This document shows, in pieces, positions 3,721-50,318 of a DNA stretch of 64,000 nucleotides. The notes beneath the pieces are model-generated. The model was not told the origin of the DNA. It searched no databases and worked only from the letters and a program-made list of their open reading frames with translations. Origin of the DNA: Clostridia bacterium (GTDB lineage: Bacteria > Bacillota > Clostridia > UBA1212 > UBA1255). Position 1 is the first letter of the stretch. Each line of letters opens with the position of its first letter. The translations under genes were made by a program, and so were the position numbers. Where the stretch lies: contig JAFZSK010000051.1 in assembly GCA_017620915.1 (NCBI GenBank), forward strand, positions 24,215 to 88,214. The letters run 5' to 3'.

Positions 3721-3845
3721 CAAGTTGTAAGTTACAAGTTACAAGTTACAAGTTTTAAGTTACAAGTTAAGGGGCGGCATTCGCCGCGGATCTCTTGGCT
3801 CCGCGAAGCGAACTTATAACTTATAACTTAAAACTTTAAACTAAA
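3721..3845. repeat. Composite element 1: 7 heptamers YAAGTTN, a GC-rich hairpin core (3770-3810, contains CCGCGGATCTC), then 5 inverted heptamers
   Basis: Read directly. Arms caagttg/taagtta ... versus aacttat/aacttaa. The core is ggcggcattcgccgcggatctcttggctccgcgaagcg, with two internal palindromes. Confidence 0.85.
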
Positions 3846-3855
3846 ATATGTGTTC

Positions 3856-3884
3856 TTGCCATTTTTCTTCCGGCATTATATAAT
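3856..3884 (+). promoter_or_regulatory. Sigma-70 promoter for the downstream lipoprotein gene
   Basis: TTGCCA-17 nt-TATAAT immediately after element 1. This implies the real start is ATG 3937 rather than the upstream in-frame ATGs. Confidence 0.55.
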
Positions 3885-3936
3885 GCATTCGGAAACAATA
3901 ATTGAATTTCATCTGATCCGCACGGAGGAACTTGGA

Positions 3937-5886
3937 ATGAGGAAATTGACGGGAGAAGGATTTGAGGAACGGAACAGGGCGGGCAGGAGATCGTCCGCGC
4001 TGGCAGTATGCGCTCTGATGCTGCTCACCGCGTTCGGCTGCAGACCGGGCAACGGTAAACCGGGGGACGGACCCGCGGCGCCCACAGAGAACACGCAGAC
4101 AATTACGGAGGAGCTGGAAACCATGGAACTGTACGGAAACGGCTACAATAACAACATGATCGTCGGCTTTGACGAATACGGCCGCACCGTGACCGCGGCG
4201 GCAGGTAAAAAAGACAAGCGCGACGTCGGTATCTTCTACTTTCTGTGGCTCGGGCAGCCGCAATCCAAAGACATCTACGACGTATCCAAACTGCTGGAGC
4301 AGTACGGCAAGGACATGGTGTTCCACGAAGAGGGCGGCAGCATCAGCCCCAACGGTCAGGCGCACTGGTGGGCAGAACCGCTGTACGGCTACTACAACAG
4401 CACCGACAAATGGGTCATCCGCAAACACATGGAAATGCTCACCGAGGCGGGCGTGGATTTCCTGATTTTCGACACTACCAACTGCGTGCTGTATGACGAA
4501 GTCGCGAAGAAAATAATGCGGATGAGCCAGGAGCTCCGGGACGAAGGCTGGGACGCGCCGCAGGTATGTTTCTATACGCATTCGCGTTCCATTGACACCA
4601 TCAAAAACATCTACAATAACTTCTATAAAAACGGCAATTATCCGGATTCCTGGTACCGCATTGACGGCCGCCCGATGATCATCGGCTACACCAGCGCCAA
4701 GCTGGATAAAAAAGAAGCGCGCAGCCGGGGCGACGATTCGTATGATCCCGAAGACCTGCCCCAGGATCTGCAGGACTTTTTCTATGTCAAAGAAGCGTGC
4801 TGGCCCAACGATTTCCACAACGCCAACTCCTTCCCGTACACCGAATGGACCTACCCGCAGCCGCTCAACGGCAACACGATGAACGTGTCCGTTGCCACCC
4901 ATCCGATGGTGCCGTTCAGCTTTTCATTGACCCATGAAAACTGGTGCAACTGGGGGCGCGGCTACGACGTCAACACCGGCGAAAACAAGCATGAAGACAT
5001 CTACCGTGGCACGTTTTTCCAATCCGAATGGGAGACCGTGTTTTCATCCGACCCGCAGCCCGAGATCCTGATGGTCACCGGCTGGAACGAATGGATCGCG
5101 TACAAACAGCCCTACGGCGGCGAGTACATGCTCTGCGACAACGTGGACATGGAATACTCCCGCGACATCGAACCAATGCAGGGCGGCTACGAAGACGCGT
5201 ATTTCATTCAGATGCTCATGAACATCCGCAAATACAAGTACAACGATTCCGACGGCGTGATCGCGGACAACGTTTACAAGACTATTGATCTCAGCGGCAA
5301 CGACGCGCAGTGGGACGAAGTTAAGGCCGTCTACCGCCACGTGGGCACGGTCAACGACAAACGCAACGCGTACGGCGGCGCTATGACGGTGCACTATTCG
5401 GTGCCTGCTGCGGACAACAACATTCTCTCTGTTAAACTCACCAACGACGCGGAGAACCTGTACTTCCGCATCGAATGCGCGGATCCGGTAAAGGTGACGG
5501 ACAACGCAAACTGGATGAACCTGTTCATCGGCACCGGCACGCCGGCGCAAAAAGGCTGGGAATCCTATGAATACGTGATCGGCCGCCGCCACGACACCGC
5601 GTCGGGTACCGCTACCGTTGAGCAGCTGCGCGCGGATTTCACCGGCAAACACGCGGGCGACGCCGCGTACGCCGTGAGCGGCAATACCGTGCTCTACAGT
5701 GTGCCGCTGGCTTCGCTGGGCATTGAAACCGGCAGCGCCGCCTCCGCGTTCCGCATTTATTTCAAAGTGGCGGACGGTGTAGAAGGCGCGGAAGAGATCA
5801 TGAACTACTATGTCTCCGGGCGCTGTCTGCCCATGGGCCGCCTGAGCTACGAGTACAAATTCAAACTGCCGGATACGGCAGACTGA
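3937..5886 (+). CDS. Secreted lipoprotein, putative glycoside hydrolase-like TIM-barrel protein
   Basis: The lipobox is LTAFGC after a basic N-terminus, with SD GGAGG upstream. The body (FYFLWLGQPQ, HWWAEPLYGYYNSTDKW, GVDFLIFDTTN) resembles GH99/GH71-like secreted hydrolases. Family assignment is uncertain. Confidence 0.55.
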   Translation: MRKLTGEGFEERNRAGRRSSALAVCALMLLTAFGCRPGNGKPGDGPAAPTENTQTITEELETMELYGNGYNNNMIVGFDEYGRTVTAAAGKKDKRDVGIFYFLWLGQPQSKDIYDVSKLLEQYGKDMVFHEEGGSISPNGQAHWWAEPLYGYYNSTDKWVIRKHMEMLTEAGVDFLIFDTTNCVLYDEVAKKIMRMSQELRDEGWDAPQVCFYTHSRSIDTIKNIYNNFYKNGNYPDSWYRIDGRPMIIGYTSAKLDKKEARSRGDDSYDPEDLPQDLQDFFYVKEACWPNDFHNANSFPYTEWTYPQPLNGNTMNVSVATHPMVPFSFSLTHENWCNWGRGYDVNTGENKHEDIYRGTFFQSEWETVFSSDPQPEILMVTGWNEWIAYKQPYGGEYMLCDNVDMEYSRDIEPMQGGYEDAYFIQMLMNIRKYKYNDSDGVIADNVYKTIDLSGNDAQWDEVKAVYRHVGTVNDKRNAYGGAMTVHYSVPAADNNILSVKLTNDAENLYFRIECADPVKVTDNANWMNLFIGTGTPAQKGWESYEYVIGRRHDTASGTATVEQLRADFTGKHAGDAAYAVSGNTVLYSVPLASLGIETGSAASAFRIYFKVADGVEGAEEIMNYYVSGRCLPMGRLSYEYKFKLPDTAD

Positions 5887-5917
5887 CTGCTATAACGCAC
5901 TATAAAAAAGGAGGGCA

Positions 5918-7321
5918 ATGGAAATGAACGGAACGAAAAAGAAACTGACGCTCACAGTGCCGGCTGTGTTCGTGTTGACTGCGATGCTTTTGACATCCTG
6001 TGTCCTGCCGTACAGCACCGTACATGAAGCGGAAACCGCACCGGCGGAAGAATTGACCGACGGACCGGACGGATCGTCAACAACTGCACCTACCACGGCC
6101 CCGACCACGGTTCCGACTGTCGCCCCGACCGCGGCACCTACCGACGCCCCGACGACTGCACCTACCGACGCCCCGACGGCTGTACCTACCGACGTACCTA
6201 CGGATCCGCCTACCCAGGCGCCCACCGAGGAACCCACGGAGGATCCCGCAGTGGTATCCGCCAGACTTGCGCTGGATTTTGTTCAGGCCCATATCGGAAC
6301 GTGGACCTCGTCTCAGGCACCGTATTTTATGAAATTTACTGTCTCCGGCGGCGTGCCGTACGTGACTATGGGCGACTGGACTACCGAGCGGCCTACCTTC
6401 ACCGGTAAAGTCACGGGTGCGGAATATGATGATGCCGGCAGGCTGCTGCTCATCTATGACTTCACCGGCACAAAGTGGACTTCGCAGAATGGCTATTATC
6501 GGGTCTACAGGGAGGAAGAACTCGACGGCAATCCGTCGCTGTTGATCAGCAATGTTGCCGCGGGAAAGGGGTTCAGCTTCATTAAATACCCGTACTTCCA
6601 GTATCCGATGAAGACCGCGACTTCCGGCTGCACGGTAGCTGAATTCATGGGTCTTATAAACGGTTACTGGAGTCAGTATCAGGATCAGTCCGGTGGTAAC
6701 GGCTATTTGTTCGCGTTCCTTGACGGAGACCGCGTCGTGATCCAGATCCGGGAGTGGGATACCGCGGAGATCGTCGATTCCTACACCGCGAAAAAGATAA
6801 CAAAAATCAACAGTGCGGTGGGCAACAGCTATAAGGTCGAGGCAATAAGCGATATCGTTGCCACGCAAGAAACGGCAACGTTCATATTTGCCGCCGACGG
6901 CTCGACCGTTAAAACAGATATCAACATAACTGTTCCCGGAACGAAAGAACCCTGGACGTACACGAAGGACAGCCCGGATAATCACAAAGAAGTGTTCGAT
7001 ATGTTTATGAGGCGATTCAAAGGCACCTGGTACAATGCGGCGGACAACACCTACATCCAGATCGGGTATGTTGACGGCAAGCCCTGGTTCCGGACCGGCA
7101 CCTGGGGCAGCGCTGCTCCGGATTTCTCCGGCGAGATCGCGGCCGCCGGCTTCCGCCAGAGTGAGGGCGCATACATGTTCGGAGCGCTGTATGAATACGG
7201 CAAAAAATATGTTGGCGCCATTATTTACGTAAACGGTACGACGGCGATGGTCAAGTATAGAGCCGGATTCAATGGTCAATTCGCCGAGTACAAGTACGAC
7301 GCTTCAAAGCAGCTGCCCTGA
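5918..7321 (+). CDS. Lipoprotein with Pro/Thr-rich linker, unknown function
   Basis: Lipobox LLTSC. The APTTAPTTVPTVAPTAAPTDAPT linker is encoded by a 24-nt DNA direct repeat. SD AAGGAGGG. Confidence 0.6.
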   Translation: MEMNGTKKKLTLTVPAVFVLTAMLLTSCVLPYSTVHEAETAPAEELTDGPDGSSTTAPTTAPTTVPTVAPTAAPTDAPTTAPTDAPTAVPTDVPTDPPTQAPTEEPTEDPAVVSARLALDFVQAHIGTWTSSQAPYFMKFTVSGGVPYVTMGDWTTERPTFTGKVTGAEYDDAGRLLLIYDFTGTKWTSQNGYYRVYREEELDGNPSLLISNVAAGKGFSFIKYPYFQYPMKTATSGCTVAEFMGLINGYWSQYQDQSGGNGYLFAFLDGDRVVIQIREWDTAEIVDSYTAKKITKINSAVGNSYKVEAISDIVATQETATFIFAADGSTVKTDINITVPGTKEPWTYTKDSPDNHKEVFDMFMRRFKGTWYNAADNTYIQIGYVDGKPWFRTGTWGSAAPDFSGEIAAAGFRQSEGAYMFGALYEYGKKYVGAIIYVNGTTAMVKYRAGFNGQFAEYKYDASKQLP

Positions 7322-7350
7322 TCCGGCGCTGCCGTAAGGACATTATAAAC

Positions 7351-7400
7351 CGGGGCCGCTGCTGCGTATCTGAACGCGGCAGCGGCCCCGCTGTTTTAAC
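7351..7400. terminator. Bidirectional intrinsic terminator between convergent genes
   Basis: ccggggccgctgctgcg-tatctgaa-cgcggcagcggccccg: a 15-bp stem with one wobble, followed by ctgtttt. Confidence 0.6.
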
Positions 7401-7412
7401 TGATCCGGGTCA

Positions 7413-12224: not shown

Positions 12225-12239
12225 TGATTTACCCGCCTT

Positions 12240-16080: not shown

Positions 16081-16094
16081 TGGCGCGTTCGACT

Positions 16095-16183
16095 GGAGAA
16101 GTACCCAAGTAGGTCGAAGGGGACGGTTTGCTAAACCGTTAGGTCGGGTTACCGGCGCCGGGGTTCGAATCCCCGCTTCTCCG
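16095..16183 (+). tRNA. tRNA-Ser (anticodon GCT)
   Basis: Cloverleaf read by hand: acceptor GGAGAAG/CTTCTCC, anticodon loop TTGCTAA, long variable arm, T-loop GGTTCGAATCC, discriminator G. No encoded CCA. Confidence 0.85.
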
Positions 16184-16225
16184 TAAAAATAAAGGGCACC
16201 TTCTGAGGTGCCCTTTATTTTTATG
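16184..16225 (+). terminator. Intrinsic terminator after tRNA-Ser
   Basis: aaagggcacc-ttctga-ggtgcccttt followed by atttttat. Confidence 0.7.
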
Positions 16226-16411: not shown

Positions 16412-16804
16412 TCACCTTTTTGCTATAAGTAGTTTCTCGCGAAGTGCTTCTTGCAGCACTTGTGAAAAATTGATATTTGCCTGCTCCGCTTCTTTGCAGA
16501 GAAGCCAGGGGATAGTGCAATTCTTTTTTACCGCTCTGTTTTCATACGCTTTTCTGTATTGGTCAAAGTCGATATCAACAAGTGTAAGCAGTTCGCCTTT
16601 TTTAACCGGGTAAGTCATATGATGCGGGGAGGGAATGCTTTTTTTATCATAATAGTAATCAACACCCATCATTCCTATAGCGTCTCTTGCCATACCGATT
16701 GCTTCTGCCAGGGAATCACCTTGAGTATTGGCTTCAAAATCCGGTATATAAACGGAGTATCCTTTTGCTTCCGGGGTCAATATCACCGGGTATACTGTTT
16801 TCAT
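16412..16804 (-). CDS. hicB: HicB family antitoxin
   Basis: 130 aa. The N-terminus YPVILTPEAKGYSVYIPDF is a HicB RNase H-like fold. The C-terminus is an RHH-like DNA-binding tail. Confidence 0.8.
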   Translation of the reverse strand: MKTVYPVILTPEAKGYSVYIPDFEANTQGDSLAEAIGMARDAIGMMGVDYYYDKKSIPSPHHMTYPVKKGELLTLVDIDFDQYRKAYENRAVKKNCTIPWLLCKEAEQANINFSQVLQEALREKLLIAKR

Positions 16805-22545: not shown

Positions 22546-24675
22546 ATGATCACGTTAACGGCCGGAAAACTGCAGATCTCTATAGATTTTGAAGCGGGGC
22601 GGATCGCCGCGCTTTCGCTGAACGGCGCCGCACGGCTGGGCGGCAACGCGCCGCTGTTCCGTCTCGGACTCCGGCACACGGACGGGGAACTTGAAGTACT
22701 ATCTGCATACGACGCGCGCGCGTTTGAACCGCTTTCGGGATCGGACGGCGGGGTCTACCGCGGCTTTGAGAAATATCCCGAACTGACCGTGACCGCGAGC
22801 GTGCGCATCGCCGCCGCTTCCGGCGAGCTGGAGTGGGAGATCGCCGTTGACCACGTACCGGCCGGGCTCGTGGCGGAGTGGGTTGAGTATCCGCAATTGA
22901 TATTGCCCCCGACCGCGGACAATAACACAGCCGGTAACGGCGGCCGCATCCTGCTGCCGTACAACGAAGGCGTGCTGATCTCCGACGCGGTCCTGCGTCA
23001 ACGCACGGATTTCCGCCACTTCGAACCCGAATACCCGTCGCTGGGCTGCTATTCGGTATTCCCGAACATGCTCTGCTCCCAGTTCATGGCGTACCTCTGG
23101 GACGACGCCGGTCTGTATATCGGCGCCCATGACCCGGAGCGCGGCTTTAAACAGATCGATTTTTACCCGGTCGACGGCGGCGTGGCGATGCAGCTGCGTT
23201 TGTACACGGGGACAGACCCCGGTGAAGCATACCGGACCGGTTTTCCCATCGTGTGGGCCGCGGTCGCCGGTCAATGGCAGTCCGCCGCGGAGCGTTACCG
23301 CCGCTGGTTTGAAACCCATTTGCCGCCGGACGTGCGGAAGCTCGCTGACAACGCAGATCTGCCCGACTGGTACGCAGACCTGCCGCTGGTGGTGACCTAC
23401 CCGGTGCGCGGTGTCCATGACATGGATGAGATGACTCCGAACAAATTGTACCCGTACGCGAATGCGCTGCCGGTGCTGGAGGATATTGCCGCCGCGGCGG
23501 ACAGCCGCCTGCTGGTGCTGCTGATGCACTGGGAAGGCACCGCGCCCTGGGCGCCGCCGTACGTCTGGCCGCCCTTTGGAGGCGAGGCGGAATTCAACGC
23601 GTTCCGGGATGCGCTGCACGCGCGGGACATGCTGCTGGGCGTGTACTGCTCCGGCTTCGGGTATACGGACAAAAGCAACCTGATCGACAGTTACGACCGG
23701 CGCGAAGAATTTGCCGCCGAAGGGCTGGCGGGGGCAATGTGCGCGGGGCCGGACGGTATTGTCCGCAAGAGCCGCATCTGCACCGGGCAACGTTCCGGTT
23801 ACGATACCTGTCCCGCGTCTGAGACCGGCCGCGCGATCCTGAACGAGGCGTACGCGCCGCTGTTCGACAGCGGGCTGGATTACGCCCAGATCCTGGACCA
23901 GAACCACGGCGGCGGTCAATACCTCTGCTACAGCCGCACCCACGGCCACCCTGCGGCCCCCGGACCCTGGATGACGGCCAACATGCGCGCTCTGCTCTCC
24001 GACTGGAGCCGCCGGGCGGGTGCACGGTCTGCCGCTGACGGGCGGTCCGCCGCCGGCCGCATGCTGCTGGGCTGCGAGTCTGCCGCCGCGGAACCCTTCA
24101 TGGGCAGCCTACCGTTCAGCGACAACCGCTTCGAACTCAACTACTTCTACGGCACACCGGTGCCGTTGTACGCATACGTCTATCACGAGTACATCCGCAA
24201 TTTCATGGGCAACCAGTGCTGCCTCCCGCTGCCCATCGCCGAGGACACGCTGCGCGACCGCATTGCCTACGCCTTCTGCGCCGGCGACGTGCCGACGCTG
24301 GTGTTGACGCCGGAAGGGGAGTTGTCGCCTGCCTGGAGCACGCGGGACTTTTCGCACCTTCCGGATAAGGATGCGGCGCTGCGTTTTATTGCCAACCTGT
24401 CGCGCTTCTACCGCGAGGAGGCCAAGCCGTATCTGTACGGGGGCCGGATGATCGCCCCGCTGCCGCTCGAGTGCGCGGGCCGCGAAGTGGAGTGCCTCTA
24501 CTGGGGCCACCGCGTCACGCTCCCCGCCGTTTGCACTACCGCCTGGGAGGCCGCGGACGGATCCCGCGCGCAGCTCGTGGTCAACCCGGGCCTTTCGCCC
24601 GCCACGTTCACGCTGGGGGGCAATACGTATACGCTGGAACCGCTGGGAATTAGACTTTTTCCTTTGGAGAATTAG
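22546..24675 (+). CDS. Hypothetical 709-aa protein (possibly glycoside hydrolase-like), translationally coupled to sufBD
   Basis: Starts 2 nt after the sufBD stop. Features are HWEGTAPWAPPYVWPPFGGE, a CC pair and a CxxxxxC element. No confident family call. Its last 3 codons are encoded by the GAATTAGG repeat. Confidence 0.45.
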   Translation: MITLTAGKLQISIDFEAGRIAALSLNGAARLGGNAPLFRLGLRHTDGELEVLSAYDARAFEPLSGSDGGVYRGFEKYPELTVTASVRIAAASGELEWEIAVDHVPAGLVAEWVEYPQLILPPTADNNTAGNGGRILLPYNEGVLISDAVLRQRTDFRHFEPEYPSLGCYSVFPNMLCSQFMAYLWDDAGLYIGAHDPERGFKQIDFYPVDGGVAMQLRLYTGTDPGEAYRTGFPIVWAAVAGQWQSAAERYRRWFETHLPPDVRKLADNADLPDWYADLPLVVTYPVRGVHDMDEMTPNKLYPYANALPVLEDIAAAADSRLLVLLMHWEGTAPWAPPYVWPPFGGEAEFNAFRDALHARDMLLGVYCSGFGYTDKSNLIDSYDRREEFAAEGLAGAMCAGPDGIVRKSRICTGQRSGYDTCPASETGRAILNEAYAPLFDSGLDYAQILDQNHGGGQYLCYSRTHGHPAAPGPWMTANMRALLSDWSRRAGARSAADGRSAAGRMLLGCESAAAEPFMGSLPFSDNRFELNYFYGTPVPLYAYVYHEYIRNFMGNQCCLPLPIAEDTLRDRIAYAFCAGDVPTLVLTPEGELSPAWSTRDFSHLPDKDAALRFIANLSRFYREEAKPYLYGGRMIAPLPLECAGREVECLYWGHRVTLPAVCTTAWEAADGSRAQLVVNPGLSPATFTLGGNTYTLEPLGIRLFPLEN

Positions 24676-24717
24676 GGAATTAGGCTATTATCCTGTGTAG
24701 AATTAGGGAATTGGCGG
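24667..24717. repeat. GAATTAGG-family iteron cluster (solitary arm)
   Basis: gagaattagggaattagg ... tagaattagggaattggcgg: three or four units of the same family as 30085 and 50133. It marks the left edge of the low-GC islet. Confidence 0.8.
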
Positions 24718-25126: not shown

Positions 25127-25166
25127 ACGCTTCGCCGCTCGAAAAACGGCGGCAACAAAAACATAT

Positions 25167-25249
<83 letters not shown>

Positions 25250-25280
25250 ACAGGTCATGAGGCCTGTTATTTTTTATTGT
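25250..25280 (+). terminator. Intrinsic terminator after the tRNA
   Basis: aataacagg-tcatga-ggcctgttatt followed by ttttatt. Confidence 0.65.
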
Positions 25281-25393
25281 GAGGCAGCAGAAAACCGGAA
25301 AAGTGCAACCTTTTTCTTATTCACGTCGCCTTATATTATGCAGCTATAAGAGGGCTGCAATACAAATAACTTAAACGGAGACGAGGTCACTTT

Positions 25394-26050
25394 ATGGAAT
25401 CAAAGAGATACATTGACAAGTATAATACGCCAAGAGTATTTCAAATCATTACCACGATCGGATTTGTTATTCTTGTTGGACTAATGCTTAGCGTAACTGT
25501 AATTGTTACTTCTGTCACGACGTATAATCCTAAAACCTGGAGTATCAATACCTGGGAACATACTCGCGACACTGTTTTCGAAATGTTTGAAGCAAAAGTG
25601 GACTACACAGGATTTCTTTTAGGAGCGGTCGCTTTAATTGCGTCTATAGCAGGTATTGTTTTTATATGGTTAAACAGACCAAAACTGTCCGCAATTTGTG
25701 CGGGAATACTTTTAATTATTATGTTTTTGTCTCTGTTAGTTATTGGCGATCTGGGTATGGAGGATTACTTTGACTCATGGAACAATTACGATCGTCTTGA
25801 GGTTAGAGTGCAAGAAACATACTATTTACTTTGGGGATTGACCATCATATTAATCGTGTTCTCTATCATTTCCATTAAGACCACCAAAGAAGGACCGAGA
25901 CCGCCTAAGCTTGTTAGAATCGTCGAAAGCCCTGCGGCTACTCAACCCTCTGCAGCTGATGAACTTAAAAAATACAAAGAATTATTAGATTCGGGAGTTA
26001 TTACTCAAGAAGAATTCCAAGAAAAGAAAAAACAGCTATTAAATCTGTGA
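25394..26050 (+). CDS. Membrane protein with C-terminal SHOCT domain
   Basis: 218 aa, four TM helices. The C-terminus ELKKYKELLDSGVITQEEFQEKKKQLL is a canonical SHOCT motif. Low-GC codon usage. Confidence 0.6.
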   Translation: MESKRYIDKYNTPRVFQIITTIGFVILVGLMLSVTVIVTSVTTYNPKTWSINTWEHTRDTVFEMFEAKVDYTGFLLGAVALIASIAGIVFIWLNRPKLSAICAGILLIIMFLSLLVIGDLGMEDYFDSWNNYDRLEVRVQETYYLLWGLTIILIVFSIISIKTTKEGPRPPKLVRIVESPAATQPSAADELKKYKELLDSGVITQEEFQEKKKQLLNL

Positions 26051-26094
26051 ACGGCTATTTAGTGCTATCCGATCTTTTAGTATACACTCCGCGA

Positions 26095-26132
26095 AAAAGA
26101 GGCATCCTAACAGCAGGGTGCCTCCTTTTTCG
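26095..26132 (+). terminator. Intrinsic terminator
   Basis: gaggcatcc-taacagcaggg-tgcctc followed by ctttttcg. Confidence 0.5.
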
Positions 26133-26229
26133 CCGTGGAATAATCGACATTCAGAAGACTTTATGATATAATGAACAGGTTAAAACGTTACACCGAGGTT
26201 CGAACATAACGGGCAGAGGAGAAACAAAA

Positions 26230-27978: not shown

Positions 27979-28054
27979 CTTGATCCGTAATTATGAGTAC
28001 AATCGCAACATCTGAGAGGCGGCCGATACGCGCCGCGGCGGTGGAGGAATCTGA

Positions 28055-29201: not shown

Positions 29202-30104
29202 ATGAGACCATTTGCCATTATCACCGATTCCAGCTGCAATCTGGATTCCGCGCAGGCGCAGGAGTACGGCGTTGACGCCATCCTGCCGATGCATTTTTAT
29301 CTGGACGGCGTGGAGCACGACGCCAGCTGCGACTGGAAAGAGTTCAGCGCCAAAGATTATTATGCCGCCATCGGCAGCGGCGCCCGGATCAAGTCCTCGC
29401 AGGTCACGTCGTACCAGTATGAAGACGCGTTCCGGCGTTTCCTGGACCAGGGGTACGACATATTGTCAATATCCTGTGCGGAGGCGTTGTCCGGCTCCAT
29501 TCGGGAGAGCATCAACGCCGCCAAACGCATTGCCGGCGAATATCCGGACGCGAAGATATATTGCGTTGACAGCTACAACTGCTGCTACTCGCTGGCAATG
29601 GTGCTGATGGAAGCCTCAAAACTGCGGGCGGCGGGGGAGAGCATTGACAACGTGCGCGAATGGATCCTGACCAACCGCGAATTCTACAATGAAGTGGGCA
29701 CCGTGGATAAACTCATATATTTGCGCAACGCAGGCCGGGTCAGCGGGCCCGCCGCGCTGTTCGGCGGTATTTTCAGCGTCAAGCCCATCGTAGTGTACGA
29801 CGAGACCGGTCATAACGTCGCTGTCGAAAAAGTGATCGGCCGCCGCGGCTCTCTCGGGCGCGTGGCAGAGTACGTGAAGAAGTACGGCCGGCCGGAGGTC
29901 AACAACCACATCTACATCATCCACGGCGACTGCGCCGAAGACGCAGAGACGGTGGGCGAACTGATCCAGGCGCAGTTTCCGGATATTAAACTGGAGTTCA
30001 CATACGGCTACGTCGAATCCGGTGTGGGTTCGTCCGTGGGGCCGGGGACAATAATCGTTGACTTTTACGGCACCGGAGAACTTAGAAAATTAGGAAAGAA
30101 TTAG
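29202..30104 (+). CDS. DegV family fatty-acid-binding protein
   Basis: FAIITDSSCNL, the SSQVTSYQYEDAF region and SGSIRESINAAKRIAGEYPDAKIYCVDS are DegV/EDD signatures. The last 8 codons are encoded by the GAATTAGG repeat arm. Confidence 0.85.
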   Translation: MRPFAIITDSSCNLDSAQAQEYGVDAILPMHFYLDGVEHDASCDWKEFSAKDYYAAIGSGARIKSSQVTSYQYEDAFRRFLDQGYDILSISCAEALSGSIRESINAAKRIAGEYPDAKIYCVDSYNCCYSLAMVLMEASKLRAAGESIDNVREWILTNREFYNEVGTVDKLIYLRNAGRVSGPAALFGGIFSVKPIVVYDETGHNVAVEKVIGRRGSLGRVAEYVKKYGRPEVNNHIYIIHGDCAEDAETVGELIQAQFPDIKLEFTYGYVESGVGSSVGPGTIIVDFYGTGELRKLGKN

Positions 30105-30296
30105 GTTTAGTGCCTTAATAGAATTAGACTAATGCCTGAATAGAATTAGGCTTAGTGCTTTTATAGAATAAGGGAATTAGGGAATTGCGGAGCGGCCTAT
30201 TGACCGCGGATCTCACGCGCGGTAAGGAGCGGCGATCTCCTCGAGCGTGAATTCATCGCCGGCGGCGATACCGCAATTCCCTAATTCTATAAAAGT
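30085..30296. repeat. Composite element 2: GAATTAGG-type iterons (~22-bp period), 80-bp GC-rich core (30191-30270) with CCGCGGATCTCACGCGCGGT, then inverted terminal arm
   Basis: Left arm cttttatagaataagggaattagggaattgcgg. Right arm ccgcaattccctaattctataaaag is its reverse complement minus one unit. The core motif is at 30204-30223. Confidence 0.85.
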
Positions 30297-30306: not shown

Positions 30307-30335
30307 CTTGACAGTGAGCATACTTCGTGATATGA
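30307..30335 (+). promoter_or_regulatory. Sigma-70 promoter of the padR-DUF1700-DUF4097 operon
   Basis: TTGACA-17 nt-TATGAT, preceded by aaaaaagtgc, then SD GGGAGG before ATG 30366. Confidence 0.6.
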
Positions 30336-37976: not shown

Positions 37977-38687
37977 GTGCTGTCAATGCTGCATTTTCTG
38001 GACGGAATAAGAGGCATCGACCTGGTGCCGGTGATCATAAAACTGTTGTGCGCGGTGCTGCTGGGCGGCATAATCGGCGTGGAGCGCTCGTATAAAAACC
38101 GTCCCGCCGGATTCCGTACGCATATTCTGGTGACGCTGGGCGCCACGGTGGCGTCCATGTCCGGCATATTTCTGTATGTTAAGGCGTCGCTGCCCGCGGA
38201 CGTGTCGCGTATCGGCGCGGCCGTGGTCTCCGGACTGGGCTTCCTGGGCGCCGGGACGATAATCGTAACGAAGAACTATACGGTGAAGGGATTGACCACT
38301 GCCGCGGGGCTGTGGACTTCGGGTATCATCGGCCTGGCGCTGGGCGCCGGATTTTACGAGGGGGCGGTAATTGCCACCGCGCTGGTGCTGCTGGCGGAAA
38401 CGACGCTGGGCAACCTGGTCAACAGCATTCGCCGCGACCCCGAGTTCTGCATCTCGGTGCTGTTCCGCGAGAAGACCGCGCTGGATCAGGTGATGCGCTG
38501 CTGCAAGAACCAGCGGATGGCAATAACGAACCTGCGGGTGGTGTCCGCGCTGAACGGCGGCGAGCCCTGCTATCGCGCGTTCGTGCGGCTGCGGCCGAGA
38601 ACAAAAGTTGACCGCGAGAAATTGTTCGGCGAGGTGCGCGCCGTGAACGGGATAATGGGGCTGGAAGAGGTTGAAGTCTCGGAATAG
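37977..38687 (+). CDS. MgtC/SapB family membrane protein (paralogue 2)
   Basis: N-terminus KLLCAVLLGGIIGVERSYKNRPAGFRTHILVTLGA. Same architecture as paralogue 1. The last codons run into the GAATTAGG repeat. Confidence 0.75.
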   Translation: MLSMLHFLDGIRGIDLVPVIIKLLCAVLLGGIIGVERSYKNRPAGFRTHILVTLGATVASMSGIFLYVKASLPADVSRIGAAVVSGLGFLGAGTIIVTKNYTVKGLTTAAGLWTSGIIGLALGAGFYEGAVIATALVLLAETTLGNLVNSIRRDPEFCISVLFREKTALDQVMRCCKNQRMAITNLRVVSALNGGEPCYRAFVRLRPRTKVDREKLFGEVRAVNGIMGLEEVEVSE

Positions 38688-38757
38688 AATTAGGTTTAGT
38701 CCTTGAATAGAATTAGGGAATTTGGTTTAGTCTTAGAATAGAATTAGGTAATTGAGG
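38682..38757. repeat. GAATTAGG-family iteron cluster (three units, 23-31 bp period)
   Basis: gaatagaattaggtttagtccttg / aatagaattagggaatttggtttagtcttag / aatagaattaggtaattgagg. It spans the stop of MgtC-2 and ends at the SD of the next gene. Confidence 0.8.
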
Positions 38758-38766
38758 TTGATCAAC

Positions 38767-39783
38767 ATGAAAAAGCGGGTGCTGATGCTGGTGATATGCC
38801 TGGCGGTGGCAATGAGTTTCGCGGCGTGCAAACAGGCGGGAAGTAGCGATAATAAGCCAACGGCCGCGCCGGCCGCTACCAACGTGCCGGCAGAAAAGGC
38901 CACTGATGCGCCGACGGAATTGCCGACGGAAGTGCCCACAGAGGCGCCCACCGAGGAGCCCAAGCCGCCCGTGGAAGCCGGGATGATGGTGTATTACGAA
39001 GACTTTTCGGGGTACGGCGACATTGACGATACGTACGACGTGACTAAAGCACTGGGGTGGGAGATCCTTACGGTGGCGATCGACAACGCCCAGAGCGACT
39101 GGACGGCGCAGCTGGCGATCAAGGACGACGCGCTGGTGGTCACCAACTTCTGGGAAGACACCGGCACCGGCGGCTCGGACGGCTACGCGCGGATCTTCGA
39201 CGAGATGACGATGAAGCGCGTGGAGAAGTTCGGCAGTTACACGCTCCAGTACGATGTGACCTTCAAGGCTTCGTACAATTATAAGCGATACCTCTGTTTC
39301 GTGACCGAATATGATGCCGAAGGCTACAATTCGTACCATTTCCGCATCGGCGGCTACGGCAACAACCAGACCTGGTACCAGGGCAAATGGTACACGCTGG
39401 ACGCCAACGACGAGAACGATCTGTACGCTGCGCGCAAGAAGAACAGTGAAACGGGCTCGACCATCGCGTACAAATTGCTGGGCATCGACGAGCCGATGGA
39501 CGAAAATACCCATAACAACTTCGAAAGTGTAAAAGTTACGATCCGCATTCAGCGCCTGAACGGACTGGCCACGATCTACATGAAGACCGTCGCGATGGAT
39601 GATTTTATCAAGGTGAGCGAGGCGTCCGAGAAGTCGGAGGACTACGGCATCGAAAAGAACCTGTACGGACTGGGCGTGTGCTTTAAAGTGGGCGGCGGGA
39701 TCAACGGGATCATTGACAACATTGCCATCTGGACCGGCACCGGCGAGATGCCCGCGGACAAAACGATAACCTATGTGCCGTGA
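38767..39783 (+). CDS. Lipoprotein with Pro/Thr linker, unknown function
   Basis: Start at MKKRVLML (SD GAGGT). Lipobox SFAAC. Linker APTELPTEVPTEAPTEEP. Confidence 0.55.
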   Translation: MKKRVLMLVICLAVAMSFAACKQAGSSDNKPTAAPAATNVPAEKATDAPTELPTEVPTEAPTEEPKPPVEAGMMVYYEDFSGYGDIDDTYDVTKALGWEILTVAIDNAQSDWTAQLAIKDDALVVTNFWEDTGTGGSDGYARIFDEMTMKRVEKFGSYTLQYDVTFKASYNYKRYLCFVTEYDAEGYNSYHFRIGGYGNNQTWYQGKWYTLDANDENDLYAARKKNSETGSTIAYKLLGIDEPMDENTHNNFESVKVTIRIQRLNGLATIYMKTVAMDDFIKVSEASEKSEDYGIEKNLYGLGVCFKVGGGINGIIDNIAIWTGTGEMPADKTITYVP

Positions 39784-42113: not shown

Positions 42114-42768
42114 TCAATCTAACCTCCGTCCGCTCTGCGTTGTCGTCAATACTTTACTACTTTTCCTTAAGTAATTCAAGGCGAATGCCCGTCTTTTTCA
42201 TTGGGGCTGCCTCATTTTCATTTTTTGAGCTGTATTTGGTATAAAACAGCCCGAACTTACGAAGTTTAGTACTAGTTTCTCCTTGCTCTCGCTCATTTTC
42301 AAAAATGCGAAATTGAAATAATGGTATAAAATAATTAATCTGGATCATATTAATCCTGTCTTTCGGAATGCTCTTGGTATAACTAATTGAATCTAAAGCC
42401 ATTTAATCCTAATCGCTCAAGATTCGATAGAGCCGGTAATCAAGAGAAGGCGCCAAATCTGGCATTAAATGTTTATAGAATTATATTTTTATCCGATCAG
42501 GCAATTAGGTCGGGTGTGCAAATTGCTTTTGAAGGCGCCTTGCATGGTATAAAAGAACAGGAAATAAGCATTTTAATCCAATTCTACCTTACAAACGGAT
42601 GAGCGCCGCTGGTCGCTTGTCCTGGCCCTGCTACGAAATCCGGAGTGGAGCCTAACTATAATATAAGCTTGCATTTTCCCTATAGGTATTATATAATTAT
42701 TATGTGTCGGTGCGGGCTGTTTTGGCGCCGCGCCGGGACAGATCATCAGCCGGAGACCGAACTTCAGA

Positions 42769-45066: not shown

Positions 45067-45074
45067 TCGATTAA

Positions 45075-46043: not shown

Positions 46044-46052
46044 CGGAGGATA

Positions 46053-47111
46053 ATGGCAATGGGCATATTGACGAAGGCGGCAACACTGCTGGCGGAAAAA
46101 GGCTGGGTGGAATTTCCGAACCTGTTCAAAAAACATGGCCTCAAGCTGAATATCGATGACGTGGTGTTCAGGATCGGCAGCCTCGAAGTGCGCTGGTACG
46201 GCCTGCTGATCAGCGGTGTGGTGGTGCTGTGCATCTTTCTGGGACTGAAGTCGTGCAAGAAGTACGGCATTGAACCTAACGACCTGCTGGACTACCTGAT
46301 CTTTTCGCTGCCCGCGGCGGTGATCGGACTCCGGGTGTATTACGTTGCCTTCAATTTCGAGGAGTACCGGGACAATCTATGGGATGTTTTCGCGTTCTGG
46401 AAAGGCGGGCTGGCAATTTACGGCGGCATTATCGGTTCGGCGATCGCGGTGCTGATCGTGGCCAAGGTCAAAAAGCAGAAAGTGCTCAAGATCCTCGACT
46501 TCCTGATCGGATATATCGCGCTGGGCCAGGCGGTCGGACGCTGGGGCAATTTCTTCAACCAGGAAGCGTTCGGCGGCCCCACCAAAATGCCCTGGGGCAT
46601 GACCGGCGATAAGATCGAGATCTTCGTCCGTTCGCAGGGCTGGCAGACGGGCACGCTGGTGCATCCCACGTTCCTGTACGAGTCGCTGTGGTGTTTTGTG
46701 GTTTTCGCGGTGATAATGCTGTACCGCCGCAGTAAATTTAAGAAGGTTGACGGCGAGTGCCTGGCGCTGTACATGATCCTTTACGGCGTCGAGCGCATGA
46801 TCGTAGAGGGGCTCCGGACGGACAGCCTGTACATCGGCAAGACCGGGATCCGCGTTTCGCAGCTGCTTTCCGCGATACTGGTGATCGTGGGCATCGCGCT
46901 GTTCATCGACTTTAAAGTGCGCTGGAAGAAGGCGGTGTACGAGGGGACCGCGGAAGGTGTTGACGCCGGCGAGAGCGGGTTTGCTGCCGCGCTGGAGGAA
47001 ATGAAGACCGGCGAGGCTGATGCGGAAGACGCGGAGGCAGTCACCGACGCCGCGGACGATGCCGCGGAGGATGTCGCCGACGCCGTAGAAAAAGCCGAGA
47101 CCGCCGGTTGA
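46053..47111 (+). CDS. lgt: Prolipoprotein diacylglyceryl transferase
   Basis: Lgt signature GRWGNFFNQEAFG and HPTFLYESLW. Acidic C-terminal extension. Confidence 0.85.
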   Translation: MAMGILTKAATLLAEKGWVEFPNLFKKHGLKLNIDDVVFRIGSLEVRWYGLLISGVVVLCIFLGLKSCKKYGIEPNDLLDYLIFSLPAAVIGLRVYYVAFNFEEYRDNLWDVFAFWKGGLAIYGGIIGSAIAVLIVAKVKKQKVLKILDFLIGYIALGQAVGRWGNFFNQEAFGGPTKMPWGMTGDKIEIFVRSQGWQTGTLVHPTFLYESLWCFVVFAVIMLYRRSKFKKVDGECLALYMILYGVERMIVEGLRTDSLYIGKTGIRVSQLLSAILVIVGIALFIDFKVRWKKAVYEGTAEGVDAGESGFAAALEEMKTGEADAEDAEAVTDAADDAAEDVADAVEKAETAG

Positions 47112-47118
47112 CCGCGCC

Positions 47119-48303
47119 ATGGCCCGATTCAGAAAAAGCAATTCACAGATCGTCAATAAAGACGAGCACCGTCTGTTCCGTGAGATATCCGTTACCAAAC
47201 CGGTGGATTATCTCATGGAATTTGACTATTTTCTGCTGATCATCGCGCTGGCGATCACGGTCATCGGGCTGATCTACCTGGGCAGCGCCATGAGCAATAT
47301 GTACGCGGACGGCGGCGCGTCGGCAATGAAGTCGCAGATCGTCGGCCTCGTCATCGGCGTGGTCCTGGCGCTGGTGCTGGCGTTTTTTGACTACGACCTG
47401 CTGAAAAAGATCACCTGGCCGTTTTTCGCGTTCAACGTGCTGCTGATGCTCAGCGTTTTCACACCGCTCGGCATCGAAGATTACGGCAGCCGGTCCTGGA
47501 TTGGCATCGGCAGTTTCACGTATCAGCCCTCCGAACTTATGAAGCTGGCAATGGTCCTGGTTATCGCCATCGAACTCGAAAAAGCGCAGGAGGAAGGCTT
47601 CAATTTCCGCCGCGTGCTGATCATTTCCGCCGCGTTTCTGGTGCCCCTCGGCCTGATCATCCTGCAGAAGGATATGGGTCAGGCGATGGTGCTGACCTTC
47701 GCGTTTTTAATGGTGTTGTTCGTGGGGCGGGCGAAGTGGTGGTATGTGTTGTCCGTGCTCGCGCTGGGCGGGGCGGCAATACCGTTCCTCTGGAAATTCT
47801 TCCTCAACGGCACGCGGCGGGCAAGGCTGTTTGCGTTTATTGACCCCGAAAAGTATCCGGATTACTCGCTCCAGCTGATCCGTTCGGAGACGGCGATCGG
47901 CTCGGGCGGCCTCACCGGCCAGGGCGTCGGGCAGGGGGCAATGAACAGCGGCAAAAAGATCCTGGTCAAAATGTCCGACTCGATCTTCGCCGTGATCGGC
48001 GAGGAGGGCGGCTTTATTATCGCCGCGCTGGTGGTAATATTGTTCGCGATCCTGCTGCTCCGGATGTGCTACATTTCGGCGCGGGCGCGGGACATGTTCG
48101 GCAAGTGTGTTGCCGCCGGCATCCTGGCGATGTTCCTGTTCAACATTTTTGAAAATATCGGTATGAATCTGGGCATAATGCCCATCACCGGCCTGCCGCT
48201 GCCGTTCATCAGCAAAGGCGGCAGCGCCATGATCACCAACTATATCTGTATCGGTCTGCTTTTGTCCGTGTCGCTGCGGCGGAAACGGGAGTTCTTCGAA
48301 TAA
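47119..48303 (+). CDS. FtsW/RodA/SpoVE (SEDS) family peptidoglycan polymerase
   Basis: ~10 TM helices. SEDS motifs GSRSWIGIGSFTYQPSE and PFISKGGSAMITN. Confidence 0.8.
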   Translation: MARFRKSNSQIVNKDEHRLFREISVTKPVDYLMEFDYFLLIIALAITVIGLIYLGSAMSNMYADGGASAMKSQIVGLVIGVVLALVLAFFDYDLLKKITWPFFAFNVLLMLSVFTPLGIEDYGSRSWIGIGSFTYQPSELMKLAMVLVIAIELEKAQEEGFNFRRVLIISAAFLVPLGLIILQKDMGQAMVLTFAFLMVLFVGRAKWWYVLSVLALGGAAIPFLWKFFLNGTRRARLFAFIDPEKYPDYSLQLIRSETAIGSGGLTGQGVGQGAMNSGKKILVKMSDSIFAVIGEEGGFIIAALVVILFAILLLRMCYISARARDMFGKCVAAGILAMFLFNIFENIGMNLGIMPITGLPLPFISKGGSAMITNYICIGLLLSVSLRRKREFFE

Positions 48304-48305
48304 TT

Positions 48306-48389
48306 GCAAATGGCAAATGGCAAAGGGCAAATGCTGAAAATCGGATGATGGCGCCGTACCTCAACTTAAAACTTAAAACTTATAACTTT
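48306..48389. repeat. Heptamer arms: GCAAATG x4, 27-bp spacer, inverted YAAGTTN x4
   Basis: gcaaatg gcaaatg gcaaagg gcaaatg ... caactta aaactta aaactta taacttt. The array supplies the last codons (FLKL*) of the minus-strand amidohydrolase gene. Confidence 0.85.
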
Positions 48390-49180
48390 AAAAAATTTAC
48401 TGCGTTTTCGTGCAGTATCAGCCTGCGCTCCTCCGGCGTGAGCGGCAGTTTGTTGAAGCGCTCCATCTCGCCCCGGTGGTTCCACATGGGGGAGTCGGTG
48501 CCGAAGAACACGCGGGAGACGCCATGGGCGCGGATGATATTGACCGCCTGTTCCGGCGGCACGAACATCAGCGCGCTGGAGGTGTCAATGTACACCCGGG
48601 GGTTGCCGTAATTGACCGCGGCATCCACCCAGTCCCGGTACCCGCCGAGGTGGGCGGCAATTGCCACCAGCTTCGGAAACCGCTCCAGCACACGCGCCAG
48701 GCGCTTGGGGCTTGAGAAATCGTACCGGTCGTCGCCGGTGTGGAACAGTATGGGCAGGCGGCCTTCCGCGGCTTCATAGATTGGGAACGCGCGCTCGTCG
48801 TCAATGTTGAACTTCTGAAAATCCGGGTGCAGCTTGATCCCGCGCAGCCCCAGCGACAGCATGCGGTCAATTTCCGCCGCCACATCCTCATAGTCCGGAT
48901 GCAGCGATCCGAAACCGATAAATTCGGGGTGCAGTCCGGCTTCGCGGGCAACGAAATTGTTGATCGACTCCACCTGATGCGCGGTGGTGGCGGTGGAGCA
49001 CACCAGGTATTTGCTCACGCCGACCGGCCGGCCGTCTTCGAGCAGATATTCGGACGTGCCTTTGTTCTGCATCGGTATATCGTAGAATGCGCCTATGGCG
49101 CTTACCGCTTTCTCCTCGATCTTATCGGGGAAGATGTGGCAGTGCATGTTAATGATGTTTTCGCGTTTCCGTCTTGCCAT
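48380..49180 (-). CDS. Amidohydrolase-2 family TIM-barrel metal-dependent hydrolase
   Basis: 266 aa. MHCHIF and HxH metal site. GIKLHPDFQ and ILFHTGDD are motifs of the PF04909-like family. SD GAGGG precedes the first ATG. Confidence 0.7.
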   Translation of the reverse strand: MARRKRENIINMHCHIFPDKIEEKAVSAIGAFYDIPMQNKGTSEYLLEDGRPVGVSKYLVCSTATTAHQVESINNFVAREAGLHPEFIGFGSLHPDYEDVAAEIDRMLSLGLRGIKLHPDFQKFNIDDERAFPIYEAAEGRLPILFHTGDDRYDFSSPKRLARVLERFPKLVAIAAHLGGYRDWVDAAVNYGNPRVYIDTSSALMFVPPEQAVNIIRAHGVSRVFFGTDSPMWNHRGEMERFNKLPLTPEERRLILHENAVNFLKL

Positions 49181-49193
49181 ATTGCCCTCAATT

Positions 49194-49236
49194 CATTTGC
49201 CCTTTGCCCATTAATTTGCCATTTGCCATTTGCCAT
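49194..49236. repeat. Inverted copy of the GCAAATG heptamer run
   Basis: catttgc cctttgc ... atttgcc atttgcc atttgcc is the reverse complement of the run at 48306. Together they bracket the amidohydrolase gene. Confidence 0.85.
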
Positions 49237-50039
49237 TATATTGTAATTGTCATCCCGTCCTGTGCCGGCGTGACCCCCAGCGGCGCCAGCTTTTTGACCA
49301 GTGTTTGATGATCCGTGTGCAGCGTCCGGGCCATGTGGGACGTGTAATAGCGCACATCGGGGGCAAAACAGTCGTATTTCCGGAACATCCGGAGCATCAG
49401 TTCCAGCATTTCGATGGTGTTGTGCTCGAAGATGCGCCAGTCGTCCGCTGCCGGCTCGCCGCAGGTGTCTTCCAGGACCAGAACATTGACCGGGAGCGTT
49501 TTTATCACGTTCCAGGATTCGGTAGGGATCCACGCACTGTCGCAGCCGTAGTACAGAATGCGACGCTCCGGCTCCGTTTCTTCGATGATGTACAGGCGGG
49601 TGGTCTCGGCGCTGTCGTCGGTGGCGTGGTTGCTGCGTAAGGGGCGGACAGCGTAGCTGTCGATGCGGTACGGCTCCGGCATCCGGACAAAAGTTTCGCG
49701 GAAGTCGATCTGCGCGGCCTTTTCGGGACCGAGCGTCCGTTCAAGTATGCGCAGACACGCCCGGTCGCCCCATAGCGTGCACGGCCTGCCGAAGCAGAGT
49801 TTCTCTACTGTTGCGGGACAAAAGTGGTCCGCGTGGGTATGGGTGACAATGATGTTTCGTACGCCGTCGAACATTTCCGGCCGGCCTGTGCTCCGGGCAA
49901 AGTGGAAAATGTGCGGTCCGGGGTCGATCAGCAGATCATCGTTCACTAATGCCGCCGAAAACCGCCGAAACTCTTTGTCCGGTTCGTACGCGTTGATGTC
50001 CCAGTCCGCCGCGCCGGTGCCCAAGAATGTCAATTTCAT
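49236..50039 (-). CDS. MBL-fold metallo-hydrolase
   Basis: MKLTFLGTGAA and the VTHTHADH metal-binding motif. Confidence 0.75.
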   Translation of the reverse strand: MKLTFLGTGAADWDINAYEPDKEFRRFSAALVNDDLLIDPGPHIFHFARSTGRPEMFDGVRNIIVTHTHADHFCPATVEKLCFGRPCTLWGDRACLRILERTLGPEKAAQIDFRETFVRMPEPYRIDSYAVRPLRSNHATDDSAETTRLYIIEETEPERRILYYGCDSAWIPTESWNVIKTLPVNVLVLEDTCGEPAADDWRIFEHNTIEMLELMLRMFRKYDCFAPDVRYYTSHMARTLHTDHQTLVKKLAPLGVTPAQDGMTITI

Positions 50040-50132
50040 ACTGCGCCGCCTCCGCTCTGACCGCCCGATGCGGTCAACGCAGACTATACCACCATTGGAC
50101 GCCGCCCGTCAATCATTATAGATTTTTACACA

Positions 50133-50318
50133 AATAGAATTAGGCTTTTATCTTGTGGGAATTAGGCTTTTTCCTTTGTAGAATCAGAGAATGAGAGAAT
50201 TGAGGTGTCGCCTTCGGAGACGATATCACACGCAAGGAAGTCGCTTCACCGCACCGCTCGTGAGATCCGCGGCCAGCCGGCCGCTCCGTAATTCTCTAAT
50301 TCCCCAATTGCAATTTCC
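50133..50318. repeat. Composite element 3: GAATTAGG-type iterons, GC-rich core (50207-50288) with inverted GAGATCCGCGG, then an imperfectly inverted AT-rich arm
   Basis: The left arm units are aatagaattagg / gggaattaggc / gagaattgagg. Core reverse complement ggccgcggatctcacgagcggtgcggtgaagcg matches the core of element 2 at 21 of 23 nt. The right arm is taattctctaattccccaattgcaatttcc. Confidence 0.85.

Follow-up and report, generated by a model that had tools for sequence, protein, structure and literature searches.

The DNA analysed here, hereafter the window, is a stretch of 64,000 nucleotides of contig JAFZSK010000051.1 (positions 24,215 to 88,214, forward strand) in assembly GCA_017620915.1, from an uncultured Clostridia bacterium of ruminant-gut metagenomes. 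Three composite elements, each with a GC-rich centre between inverted arms of short AT-rich tandem units, were found between its genes at 3721-3845 (E1), 30085-30296 (E2) and 50133-50318 (E3), exactly where a model working without database searches (the sequence-only reading) had placed them. The flanking genes are ordinary housekeeping genes, and every copy, in the window or in related contigs, is intergenic.

E1 is located between the -35 boxes at 3716(-) and 3856(+) of two divergent promoters, and E3 between those at 50112(-) and 50308(+) of another divergent pair, so both elements lie upstream of both flanking promoters. E2 begins within the DegV gene (open reading frame (ORF) 29202-30104, with a DegV Pfam match): the TAG in its first unit is the stop codon of this gene (30102-30104), and its right arm stops about 11 nt short of the -35 box at 30308. 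Each element adjoins a near-consensus promoter matching 10 to 11 of the 12 hexamer positions, as had been noted from the sequence. The parts of the elements are listed in Table 1, together with arrays of the same units that have no core.

Table 1. Elements, element parts and core-less arrays in the window.
Feature	Positions	Strand	Description	Score, tool or context
E1 left arm	3720..3769	+	about 7 tandem heptamers (ACAAGTT / GTAAGTT / TTAAGTT)	Tandem Repeats Finder, period 7, 7.1 copies
E1 GC-rich centre	3770..3810	+	41 nt; P1-like hairpin GCGGC-ATTC-GCCGC, 11-mer CCGCGGATCTC, GAAGCGA	
E1 right arm	3811..3846	-	about 5 inverted heptamers (AACTTAT / AACTTAA)	Tandem Repeats Finder, period 7
E2 left arm	30093..30179	+	four 22-23-bp units (xATAGAATTAGG + variable YTTAGTGCCTGA), plus GGGAATTA octamer repeat	
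E2 core	30180..30281	+	full length	105.5 bits (model R1; E2 is a training sequence)
E2 right arm	30275..30296	-	one inverted unit (ATAGAATTAGGGAATTGCGG on the - strand)	overlaps the closing stem
E3 long arm	50135..50194	+	two 22-bp units + degenerate GAATCAGAGAATGAGAGAATTG	
E3 core	50195..50296	-	full length; strand opposite to E2	100.9 bits (model R1; E3 is a training sequence)
E3 short arm	50290..50318	-	GGGGAATTAGAGAATTACGG on the - strand	-35 box TTGCAA at 50308 supplied or adjoined by its outer end
Core-less heptamer array	1781..1814	+	TAAGTTT	fills the entire spacer from DUF362 stop codon to SpoU start codon
Heptamer array with core-like stretch	2923..3012	+	GTAAGTT x6 at 2923-2966, then weakly core-like GTGGTGCGGCC...GGCCGCGAATATCACG	
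Core-less GAATTAGG array	24645..24715	+		overwrites the last codons of gene 22546-24675 and supplies its stop (24673-24675)
Core-less GAATTAGG array	38685..38760	+	three GAATTAGG units ending in AATTGAGGT	
Paired heptamer arrays	48302..48392	.	(AAATGGC)n 48302-48333, 28 nt, (AACTTAA)n 48363-48392 (YAAGTTN type)	between convergent genes
Heptamer array	49191..49237	-	(ATTTGCC)n, inverted relative to the 48302 array	between two - strand genes

Anatomy of the elements and of the core-less arrays

The arm repeats that had been described by inspection, heptamers in E1 and units of 22-23 bp in E2 and E3, were borne out by Tandem Repeats Finder, which placed the longer units at 30097-30173 and 50135-50184. 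The GAATTAGG motif was counted 12 times in the window, against 1.4 expected. Each 22-23-bp unit is composed of a conserved half (xATAGAATTAGG) and a variable half (YTTAGTSYYTGR), and successive TAGAATTAGG units are spaced by 23 bp (16 times), 22 bp (5 times) or, in the GGGAATTA sub-repeat, 8 bp (7 times). Without exception these units point towards the core, and all six distinct full cores known to us (see below) share this arm design. The short non-coding core is thus bordered by terminal inverted repeats, the innermost 20 bp of which are ATAGAATTAGGGAATTGCGG and CCGCAATTCCCTAATTCTAT; the outer termini of the arms are indistinguishable from internal units. The arms were correctly described as inverted, with the correction that the right arm of E3 has a length of no more than about one unit.

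Through comparison of the centres, the agreement of E2 and E3 at 21 of 23 positions across tgRccgcggatctcacgMgcggt was confirmed, and the true homology reaches further, over the full 102 nt of the core with 74% identity. The 11-mer CCGCGGATCTC that had been reported as common to the three elements was exact at 3784(+), 30204(+) and 50262(-). With at most one mismatch it was matched nine times in the window (2.3 expected), including two other exact matches at 54512(-) and 61668(-) that lie in genes, where the reverse complement provides E-I-R-G codons; these two are unrelated to the elements. E1 resembles the 102-nt core in the 5' ~25 nt only (GGnGCGGC..CCGCGGATCTC, that is a P1-like hairpin and the 11-mer). 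Its local score against the core was 26 (shuffles 15 +/- 2.6), and under the full covariance model described below it reached 11.7 bits (E = 2.3), so we regard it as a truncated or divergent relative and no full copy. The proposal that all three cores are homologous therefore stands for E2 and E3 and not in full for E1, and the picture of one conserved core riding on different arms was too strong.

The arrays are not peculiar to the three elements: seven core-less places in the window hold the same arrays (Table 1). A low-GC scan indicated that about ten spacers are largely built of them. Typically an array starts at a gene's stop codon and extends as far as the following gene's -35 box or ribosome-binding site, and the (CCATTTG)n arrays supply TTGCCA -35 boxes. 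All heptamer arrays (at 1781, 2923, 3720, 3811, 48302, 48363 and 49191) are intergenic. The solitary GAATTAGG arrays at 24645 and 38685 finish in the first bases of the closing stem of the core, which is consistent with deletion remnants of full elements; in the latter these bases are AATTGAGGT, which serves as the ribosome-binding site of the next gene. The stretch after the 2923 array (GGCCGCGAATATCACG) had a local score of up to 29 against the core (16 +/- 2.3 for shuffles, reached by 0 of 300), a second association of heptamer arms with a core fragment. Weak core remnants suspected after the 24645 array and in the 28-nt centre at 48334 were dropped, the similarity being not significant.

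Copies and variation in related genomes

A covariance model (R1) was built from five cores, namely E2, E3 and three related copies. It found nothing above 15 bits in the window beyond E2 and E3 and recovered a copy absent from its training set (L004, 2219-2317); such a model had been suggested earlier as a way to look for further copies. In related metagenome contigs four further copies were identified at three loci: L058, L064, a second copy in L004, and a diverged E2 in L005. L058 and L064 came from a metagenome pattern scan, being the only true copies among 18 hits, and the two others from a look-up of the flanking proteins in related contigs. Altogether six distinct full cores (E2, E3, L058, L064, L005 and the second L004 copy) show 70-84% pairwise identity, besides truncated ones, and core scores across the copies are 78-114 bits.

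The arrays are carried by relatives with 88-94% nucleotide identity to the window and are absent from L073 and L075, in which the DegV protein is 62-67% identical. A scan of a genome collection (one genome per species) with GGAGCGGCCN{4,6}CCGCGGATCTC gave 41 hits, all single chance matches in high-GC genomes, and did not match the clade's own representative. Comparison of E2 with plasmids and phages by blastn gave chance hits or none, and two scans of viral contigs, by an arm 16-mer and by a core pattern respectively, gave chance hits only. The occurrence of the family is limited to a narrow clade of uncultured Clostridia of the ruminant gut (rumen). L006, L114 and other short metagenome contigs start or end in or beside arm arrays, so the repeats probably break short-read assemblies of this clade.

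Among close relatives E2, E3 and the second L004 copy are each missing in some. E3 is missing in L105, L107 and L116, where the empty site has the divergent -35 boxes only 2 bp apart (GTCAAC-AG-TTGCAA); compared with L105 and L107, the filled site of the window reads GTCAAT-[element]-CCCCAA-TTGCAA, the element standing exactly between the two boxes. At the same site L108 (246-330) and L109 (700-745) carry a different GC-rich hairpin unit, GGTCTGACCCCGTGCTTAAA, twice in the former and once, diverged, in the latter; it has no match in the window. Small palindromic insertions seem to favour this gap between the promoters.

E2 is missing in L002 and L003, which have an ordinary hairpin-plus-T-run terminator in its place after the DegV gene. 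It is present in L004, L005 and L072 with different unit numbers on each side, and in L072 the core is internally reduced to 42 nt, with the closing stem and the P3 hairpin kept and the neighbours intact. The spacer between the DUF4097 and aldo-keto reductase genes contains a full element in L004, an arm scrap in L072 and none in the window, L002 or L003. The spacer after gene 22546-24675 holds GAATTAGG units in the window and an AAATGGC/AAATTGC heptamer array in L072. Heptamer arrays vary by whole units among strains: unit numbers of the 48302-48392 arrays differ in L105, and the length of the 49191-49237 array differs in L105 and L107.

The E2 cores of the window and L005 have 81% identity, and the adjacent genes show 80-88% identity at their third codon positions; the core sequence thus drifts at about the synonymous (neutral) rate. 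Accelerated evolution of the core between strains, considered for a time, was dropped once the divergence of the flanks had been measured (88-94% identity overall, 80-88% at third positions).

These data also bear on whether there is a unitary element at all. The arrays could be independent micro- or minisatellite expansions around unrelated GC-rich centres that share a short motif by chance. Most arrays are indeed core-less, their copy number differs between strains as is typical of tandem repeats, the similarity of E1 to the core is short, and the 11-mer has its two additional exact matches in coding DNA. Yet six cores share 102 nt at 70-84% identity, always between core-pointing arms, their model scores cannot be chance, and the solitary GAATTAGG arrays end as truncated elements would. 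For E2 and E3 independent expansion is already refuted, and as a general account we consider it very improbable.

The same comparisons can be used to weigh a regulatory role. In an operator-like or insulator site a DNA-binding protein, such as a nucleoid-associated protein or a regulator, would bind in tandem to the heptamers and to the 22-23-bp units, each of which spans about two helical turns, with the core as a cruciform-forming spacer, and the whole would be retained for tuning or insulating promoters. A -35 box adjoins each of the three window elements, the insertion of E3 falls precisely between boxes that are back to back in the empty allele, the (CCATTTG)n arrays provide -35 boxes of their own, and the units combine a conserved half, TAGAATTAGG, with a variable one, as in iterons and operator arrays. 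On the other side, unit number, unit type and the very presence of the element vary freely at the same promoter among close relatives; arrays are also present at promoter-free places, within operons and between convergent genes; the core drifts at about the synonymous rate; and a candidate for the binding protein is lacking. Retention for promoter control is an unlikely explanation.

Fold of the core and possible mode of movement

The RNAalifold consensus of the core is a four-way junction of 38 pairs (-42 kcal/mol). Its closing stem, GGGAATTGCGG / CCGCAATTCCC, runs on into the innermost arm units, and the other stems are P1 (GCGGCC-N4-GGCCGC), a long P2 (GATCTCACG...CGTGAnnTC; in E2 GATCTCACG..CGTGAnTTC) and P3 (RTCGCC-N3-GGCGAY; in E2 ATCGCC-N3-GGCGAT). 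A small structured RNA was among the possibilities named by the sequence-only reading, and such a fold would suit one, whether a small RNA, a stabiliser or terminator-like element of a 3' untranslated region, or a cis-regulatory leader, with the arms as low-complexity flanks. Besides the consensus fold, it is in favour of an RNA that pairing persists through 17-30 substitutions between copies, that compensatory changes exist (e.g. A-U to G-C at the base of P3), that the RNA fold of E2 beats shuffles on both strands (z = -3.1 and -4.9), and that E2 stands where L002 and L003 have a terminator.

Other results argue against it. Rfam gave only two tRNAs at the gathering threshold over the whole window, and nothing over the cores of E2 and E3 at E <= 10. 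The orientation of the core is inconsistent: with respect to the upstream gene it is sense in E2 but antisense in three others, L058, L064 and the second copy of L004. E1 and E3 each lie upstream of the two promoters that flank them. A pattern scan of E1-E3 revealed neither a promoter nor an intrinsic terminator of the element's own. Mismatch cells in paired positions comprise 12 G·T and 9 A·C, a balance that favours neither strand. The covariation of stem positions that had been proposed as a check was weak and not significant because there are only six distinct full cores: both partners had changed in four pairs, and 65 of 500 shuffles reached as many. Moreover, the RNA fold of E3 is no better than shuffles (z = -1.5 and -1.1), and in L072 the core is mostly deleted while its neighbours are intact. 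An RNA gene is thus unlikely, and we give little credence to the structured-RNA explanation as a whole.

Three narrower candidates were also rejected. A small gene or the 3' end of a gene, prompted by GAGATCCGCGG encoding E-I-R-G, is contradicted by the lack of any conserved reading frame, with stops in two of six copies, no conserved start, a frame-shift in one copy and amino-acid identity at the neutral level. A tRNA-like cloverleaf was dropped as ARAGORN found no tRNA at the core, and an intrinsic terminator as the elements do not match the terminator pattern.

At the level of DNA, each copy retains 34-36 of the 38 pairs, where random placement of the same changes breaks 8-10. As single-stranded DNA, E1 (whole element, z = -5.6) and E2 (z = -6.9) fold much better than shuffles. 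A palindrome kept on both strands despite drift is expected of a DNA-level element, as in cruciforms, enzyme-recognised hairpins or inverted transposon ends.

We therefore favour, with a probability of roughly 0.6, the explanation that E2, E3 and the truncated E1 belong to a clade-restricted family of non-coding mosaic intergenic palindromes that act at the DNA level and are selfish or near-neutral, similar in kind to MITEs (miniature inverted-repeat transposable elements), BOX, BrickBuilt and BIME. Of the possibilities offered earlier, the MITE-like one is the one supported by the further copies, the presence/absence variation among relatives and the lack of Rfam, phage or plasmid matches. 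That the family exists, how its elements are built, how they vary among relatives and where they stand with respect to genes is shown by the data above: a full element has a GC-rich core of about 102 bp, made of nested palindromes, between inverted arms with a variable number of AT-rich units, and as single-stranded DNA or a cruciform the core could form the four-way junction. How the element moves, and whether its fold is relevant, we infer as follows. It might enter intergenic DNA through a trans-acting enzyme, a candidate that would recognise the arm units or the hairpins, or alternatively by recombination templated on other copies. The arms may lengthen and shorten by slippage and recombination between units, and the core may decay by internal deletion to leave solitary arms. 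The arms would then be arrays of recognition units for the trans enzyme, or mere substrates of slippage and recombination, and the core either a passenger or the structure that the enzyme recognises. Such an element would be selfish or near-neutral and would behave much like MITEs, BOX, BrickBuilt and BIME/REPIN, and its effects on the host would be incidental: it would separate back-to-back promoters, replace a terminator, and donate stop codons, -35 or -35-like boxes and ribosome-binding sites.

Several observations weigh against this explanation. Pfam searches of the tested ORFs, in the window and next to L058 and L064, yielded no transposase or recombinase, and no autonomous partner is known. 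The target-site duplication suggested earlier as a sign of mobility was not found, nor a distinct terminal sequence, at the sole clean filled/empty junction (E3), and at the E2 and L004 sites the old spacer was replaced and not simply interrupted. The test of the retained fold is partly circular because the structure was derived from the same sequences; the covariation is weak, as given above; and the single-stranded DNA fold of E3 is no better than shuffles (z = -1.1). The swap of arm families at one locus, which no simple model explains, and the many core-less arrays are not what a simple MITE would typically show and perhaps reflect another process.

A more novel possibility would be an active system, particular to this clade, which would write short units in tandem into intergenic DNA, the cloverleaf-like core being the recognised structure. 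The enzyme could be hairpin-recognising (HUH/RAYT-like, or another transposase or recombinase), or the units could arise from copy-templated repair. Such a system would explain why close relatives have different arm families at one locus, why arrays exactly fill the space from stop codon to -35 box, and why spacers are replaced instead of interrupted and no target-site duplication is left. No RAYT gene was seen in the ~150 kb of clade DNA examined, in which part of the ORFs were scanned. We mention this system as a speculative possibility with a low chance of being correct.

Known repeat families and other variable features

REP, BIME and REPIN repeats are associated with RAYT (IS200-like Y1) transposases and are known mainly from Proteobacteria. 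The elements described here resemble them as GC-rich extragenic palindromes in inverted mosaics, without classical terminal inverted repeats or target-site duplication, and in a hairpin maintained on both strands, a strain-variable unit number and long vertical inheritance. They differ in that P1 and P3 are distinct, so that there is no single REP palindrome, and in their AT-rich, non-palindromic tandem arms. BOX of Streptococcus pneumoniae has variable boxB tandem modules and boxA and boxC ends that pair; it is thought to be mobilised in trans, is transcribed and affects neighbouring genes. It is likewise a modular intergenic repeat of a Firmicute with variable tandem modules and a stable fold, but its variable tandem module is internal, whereas here it is terminal.

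BOX is reviewed among bacterial intergenic repeats together with Correia, RUP, ERIC and REP/BIME (PMC3184786). Classical MITEs such as Correia, RUP and ERIC (PMC3184786) are similar in being short, non-coding, multi-copy and intergenic, with inverted ends, presence/absence variation and an ability to donate promoters or terminators; unlike our elements, they have defined terminal inverted repeats and target-site duplications, neither of which was found here. The BrickBuilt MITE of Porphyromonas gingivalis is strictly intergenic and species-restricted, with about 19 copies, partial forms and promoter-like sequences, and is built on an imperfect tandem unit of 23 nt that is repeated a different number of times from copy to copy and from strain to strain (PMC4596501). 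These units occupy its middle and are bordered by a unique "leader" and "tail" with small terminal inverted repeats (PMC4596501). Variable-number units of about 23 nt with one conserved and one variable half, intergenic location and partial forms are common to both families; here, however, the units form the inverted arms and the unique module is central, and the host phylum differs. Variable imperfect units combined with unique modules, in intergenic DNA and with partial forms, are thus found in this family as in the modular tandem-unit repeats, with a module order inverted relative to BOX and BrickBuilt, from which it is set apart on the basis of their descriptions.

A CRISPR array would have direct repeats of at least 23 nt in a single orientation, separated by unique spacers of comparable length and accompanied by a leader or cas genes. 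It does not agree with a conserved unit part of ~10-12 nt or with arms of 1-4 units in inverted orientation on either side of a core, and the ORFs tested included no cas genes. Integron attC sites, which are marked by the boundary motifs RYYYAAC (R'') and GTTRRRY (R') at cassette 3' ends beside intI, were rejected by inspection: neither the YAAGTTN heptamers nor the ends of the units conform to GTTRRRY, the orientations are not uniform and an integrase was not found; plasmid iterons and T-box leaders were also dropped by inspection.

The STRR of cyanobacteria are tandem intergenic heptamers too. Intergenic TAACTGA heptamers are found in Beggiatoaceae, Cyanobacteria and Bacteroidetes, often directly upstream of start codons that have no normal ribosome-binding site (PMC4679880). 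The arrays here are similarly tandem heptamers restricted to intergenic DNA and can adjoin a start codon, as at 1781-1814; they differ in sequence (YAAGTTN, AAATGGC), in forming inverted pairs around a GC-rich centre and in being replaceable by arrays of 23-bp units, and we take the resemblance as an analogy and not as membership. The (TAAGTTT)n array, followed to 1817, abuts the ATG of the SpoU methylase gene with no recognisable Shine-Dalgarno sequence, a situation comparable with that in Beggiatoaceae, where TAACTGA heptamers stand in for ribosome-binding sites (PMC4679880).

The family therefore cannot be filed as a member of any class compared, and relatedness in sequence was not seen as far as tested. 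The view that the elements fit no known class holds for their sequence; it does not hold for their kind, as modular repeats such as BOX and BrickBuilt are known (PMC3184786, PMC4596501).

Some other features of the window and its relatives were recorded. Near E1, a 34-aa hydrophobic ORF (MITHNELYALVSLLIAFASLVIYITRGGNGSKKD; 3495-3599(+)) lies opposite a near-consensus convergent promoter (3716-3688(-), TTGACG-17-TATAAT), an arrangement that resembles a type I toxin with an antisense RNA antitoxin. Upstream of this ORF there are two ACATAGC...GCTATGT hairpins (3080-3115 and 3165-3200) and three TGTCGAA/TGTTGAA boxes at 10-bp spacing (3298-3325), which we take to resemble the 0A boxes of Spo0A. 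Directly after tRNA-Met a low-GC island (25166-28000, 41-44% GC) encodes a SHOCT/DUF4064 protein and a Sel1-repeat protein; at the same place L072 (7808-8230) contains two extra copies of the 3' end of this tRNA with its terminator instead, suggesting repeated integration and excision of mobile elements there. A RelB/ParE toxin-antitoxin pair (52627-53249) of the window strain is missing in the otherwise collinear L116 and L105. The region 42134-42720 is ~600 bp of AT-rich non-coding DNA with several TATAAT/GGTATAA promoter-like motifs, one doubtful 81-aa ORF and no arrays, and the matching gap in L116 is only ~190 bp. A HicB-like antitoxin gene (16412-16804(-)) is located in an AT-rich patch by tRNA-Ser (16094-16184) and is accompanied by HicA in L072 (563-1136). 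Two unrelated genes contain mutually similar coding repeats with a 12-nt period (6083-6247 and 38902-38962), Pro/Thr/Asp-rich and linker-like.

The repeats thus constitute a previously undescribed and structurally unusual mosaic family from uncultured rumen Clostridia. As a well-folding, multi-copy, GC-rich module that proves to be no RNA gene, the core is also a useful negative case. Among close relatives the repeats alter stop codons, terminators, -35 boxes, ribosome-binding sites and the spacing of divergent promoters, so the family is likely a source of regulatory variation. If an enzyme does move the elements or write the arrays, it would represent a new DNA-structure-directed system in Firmicutes.

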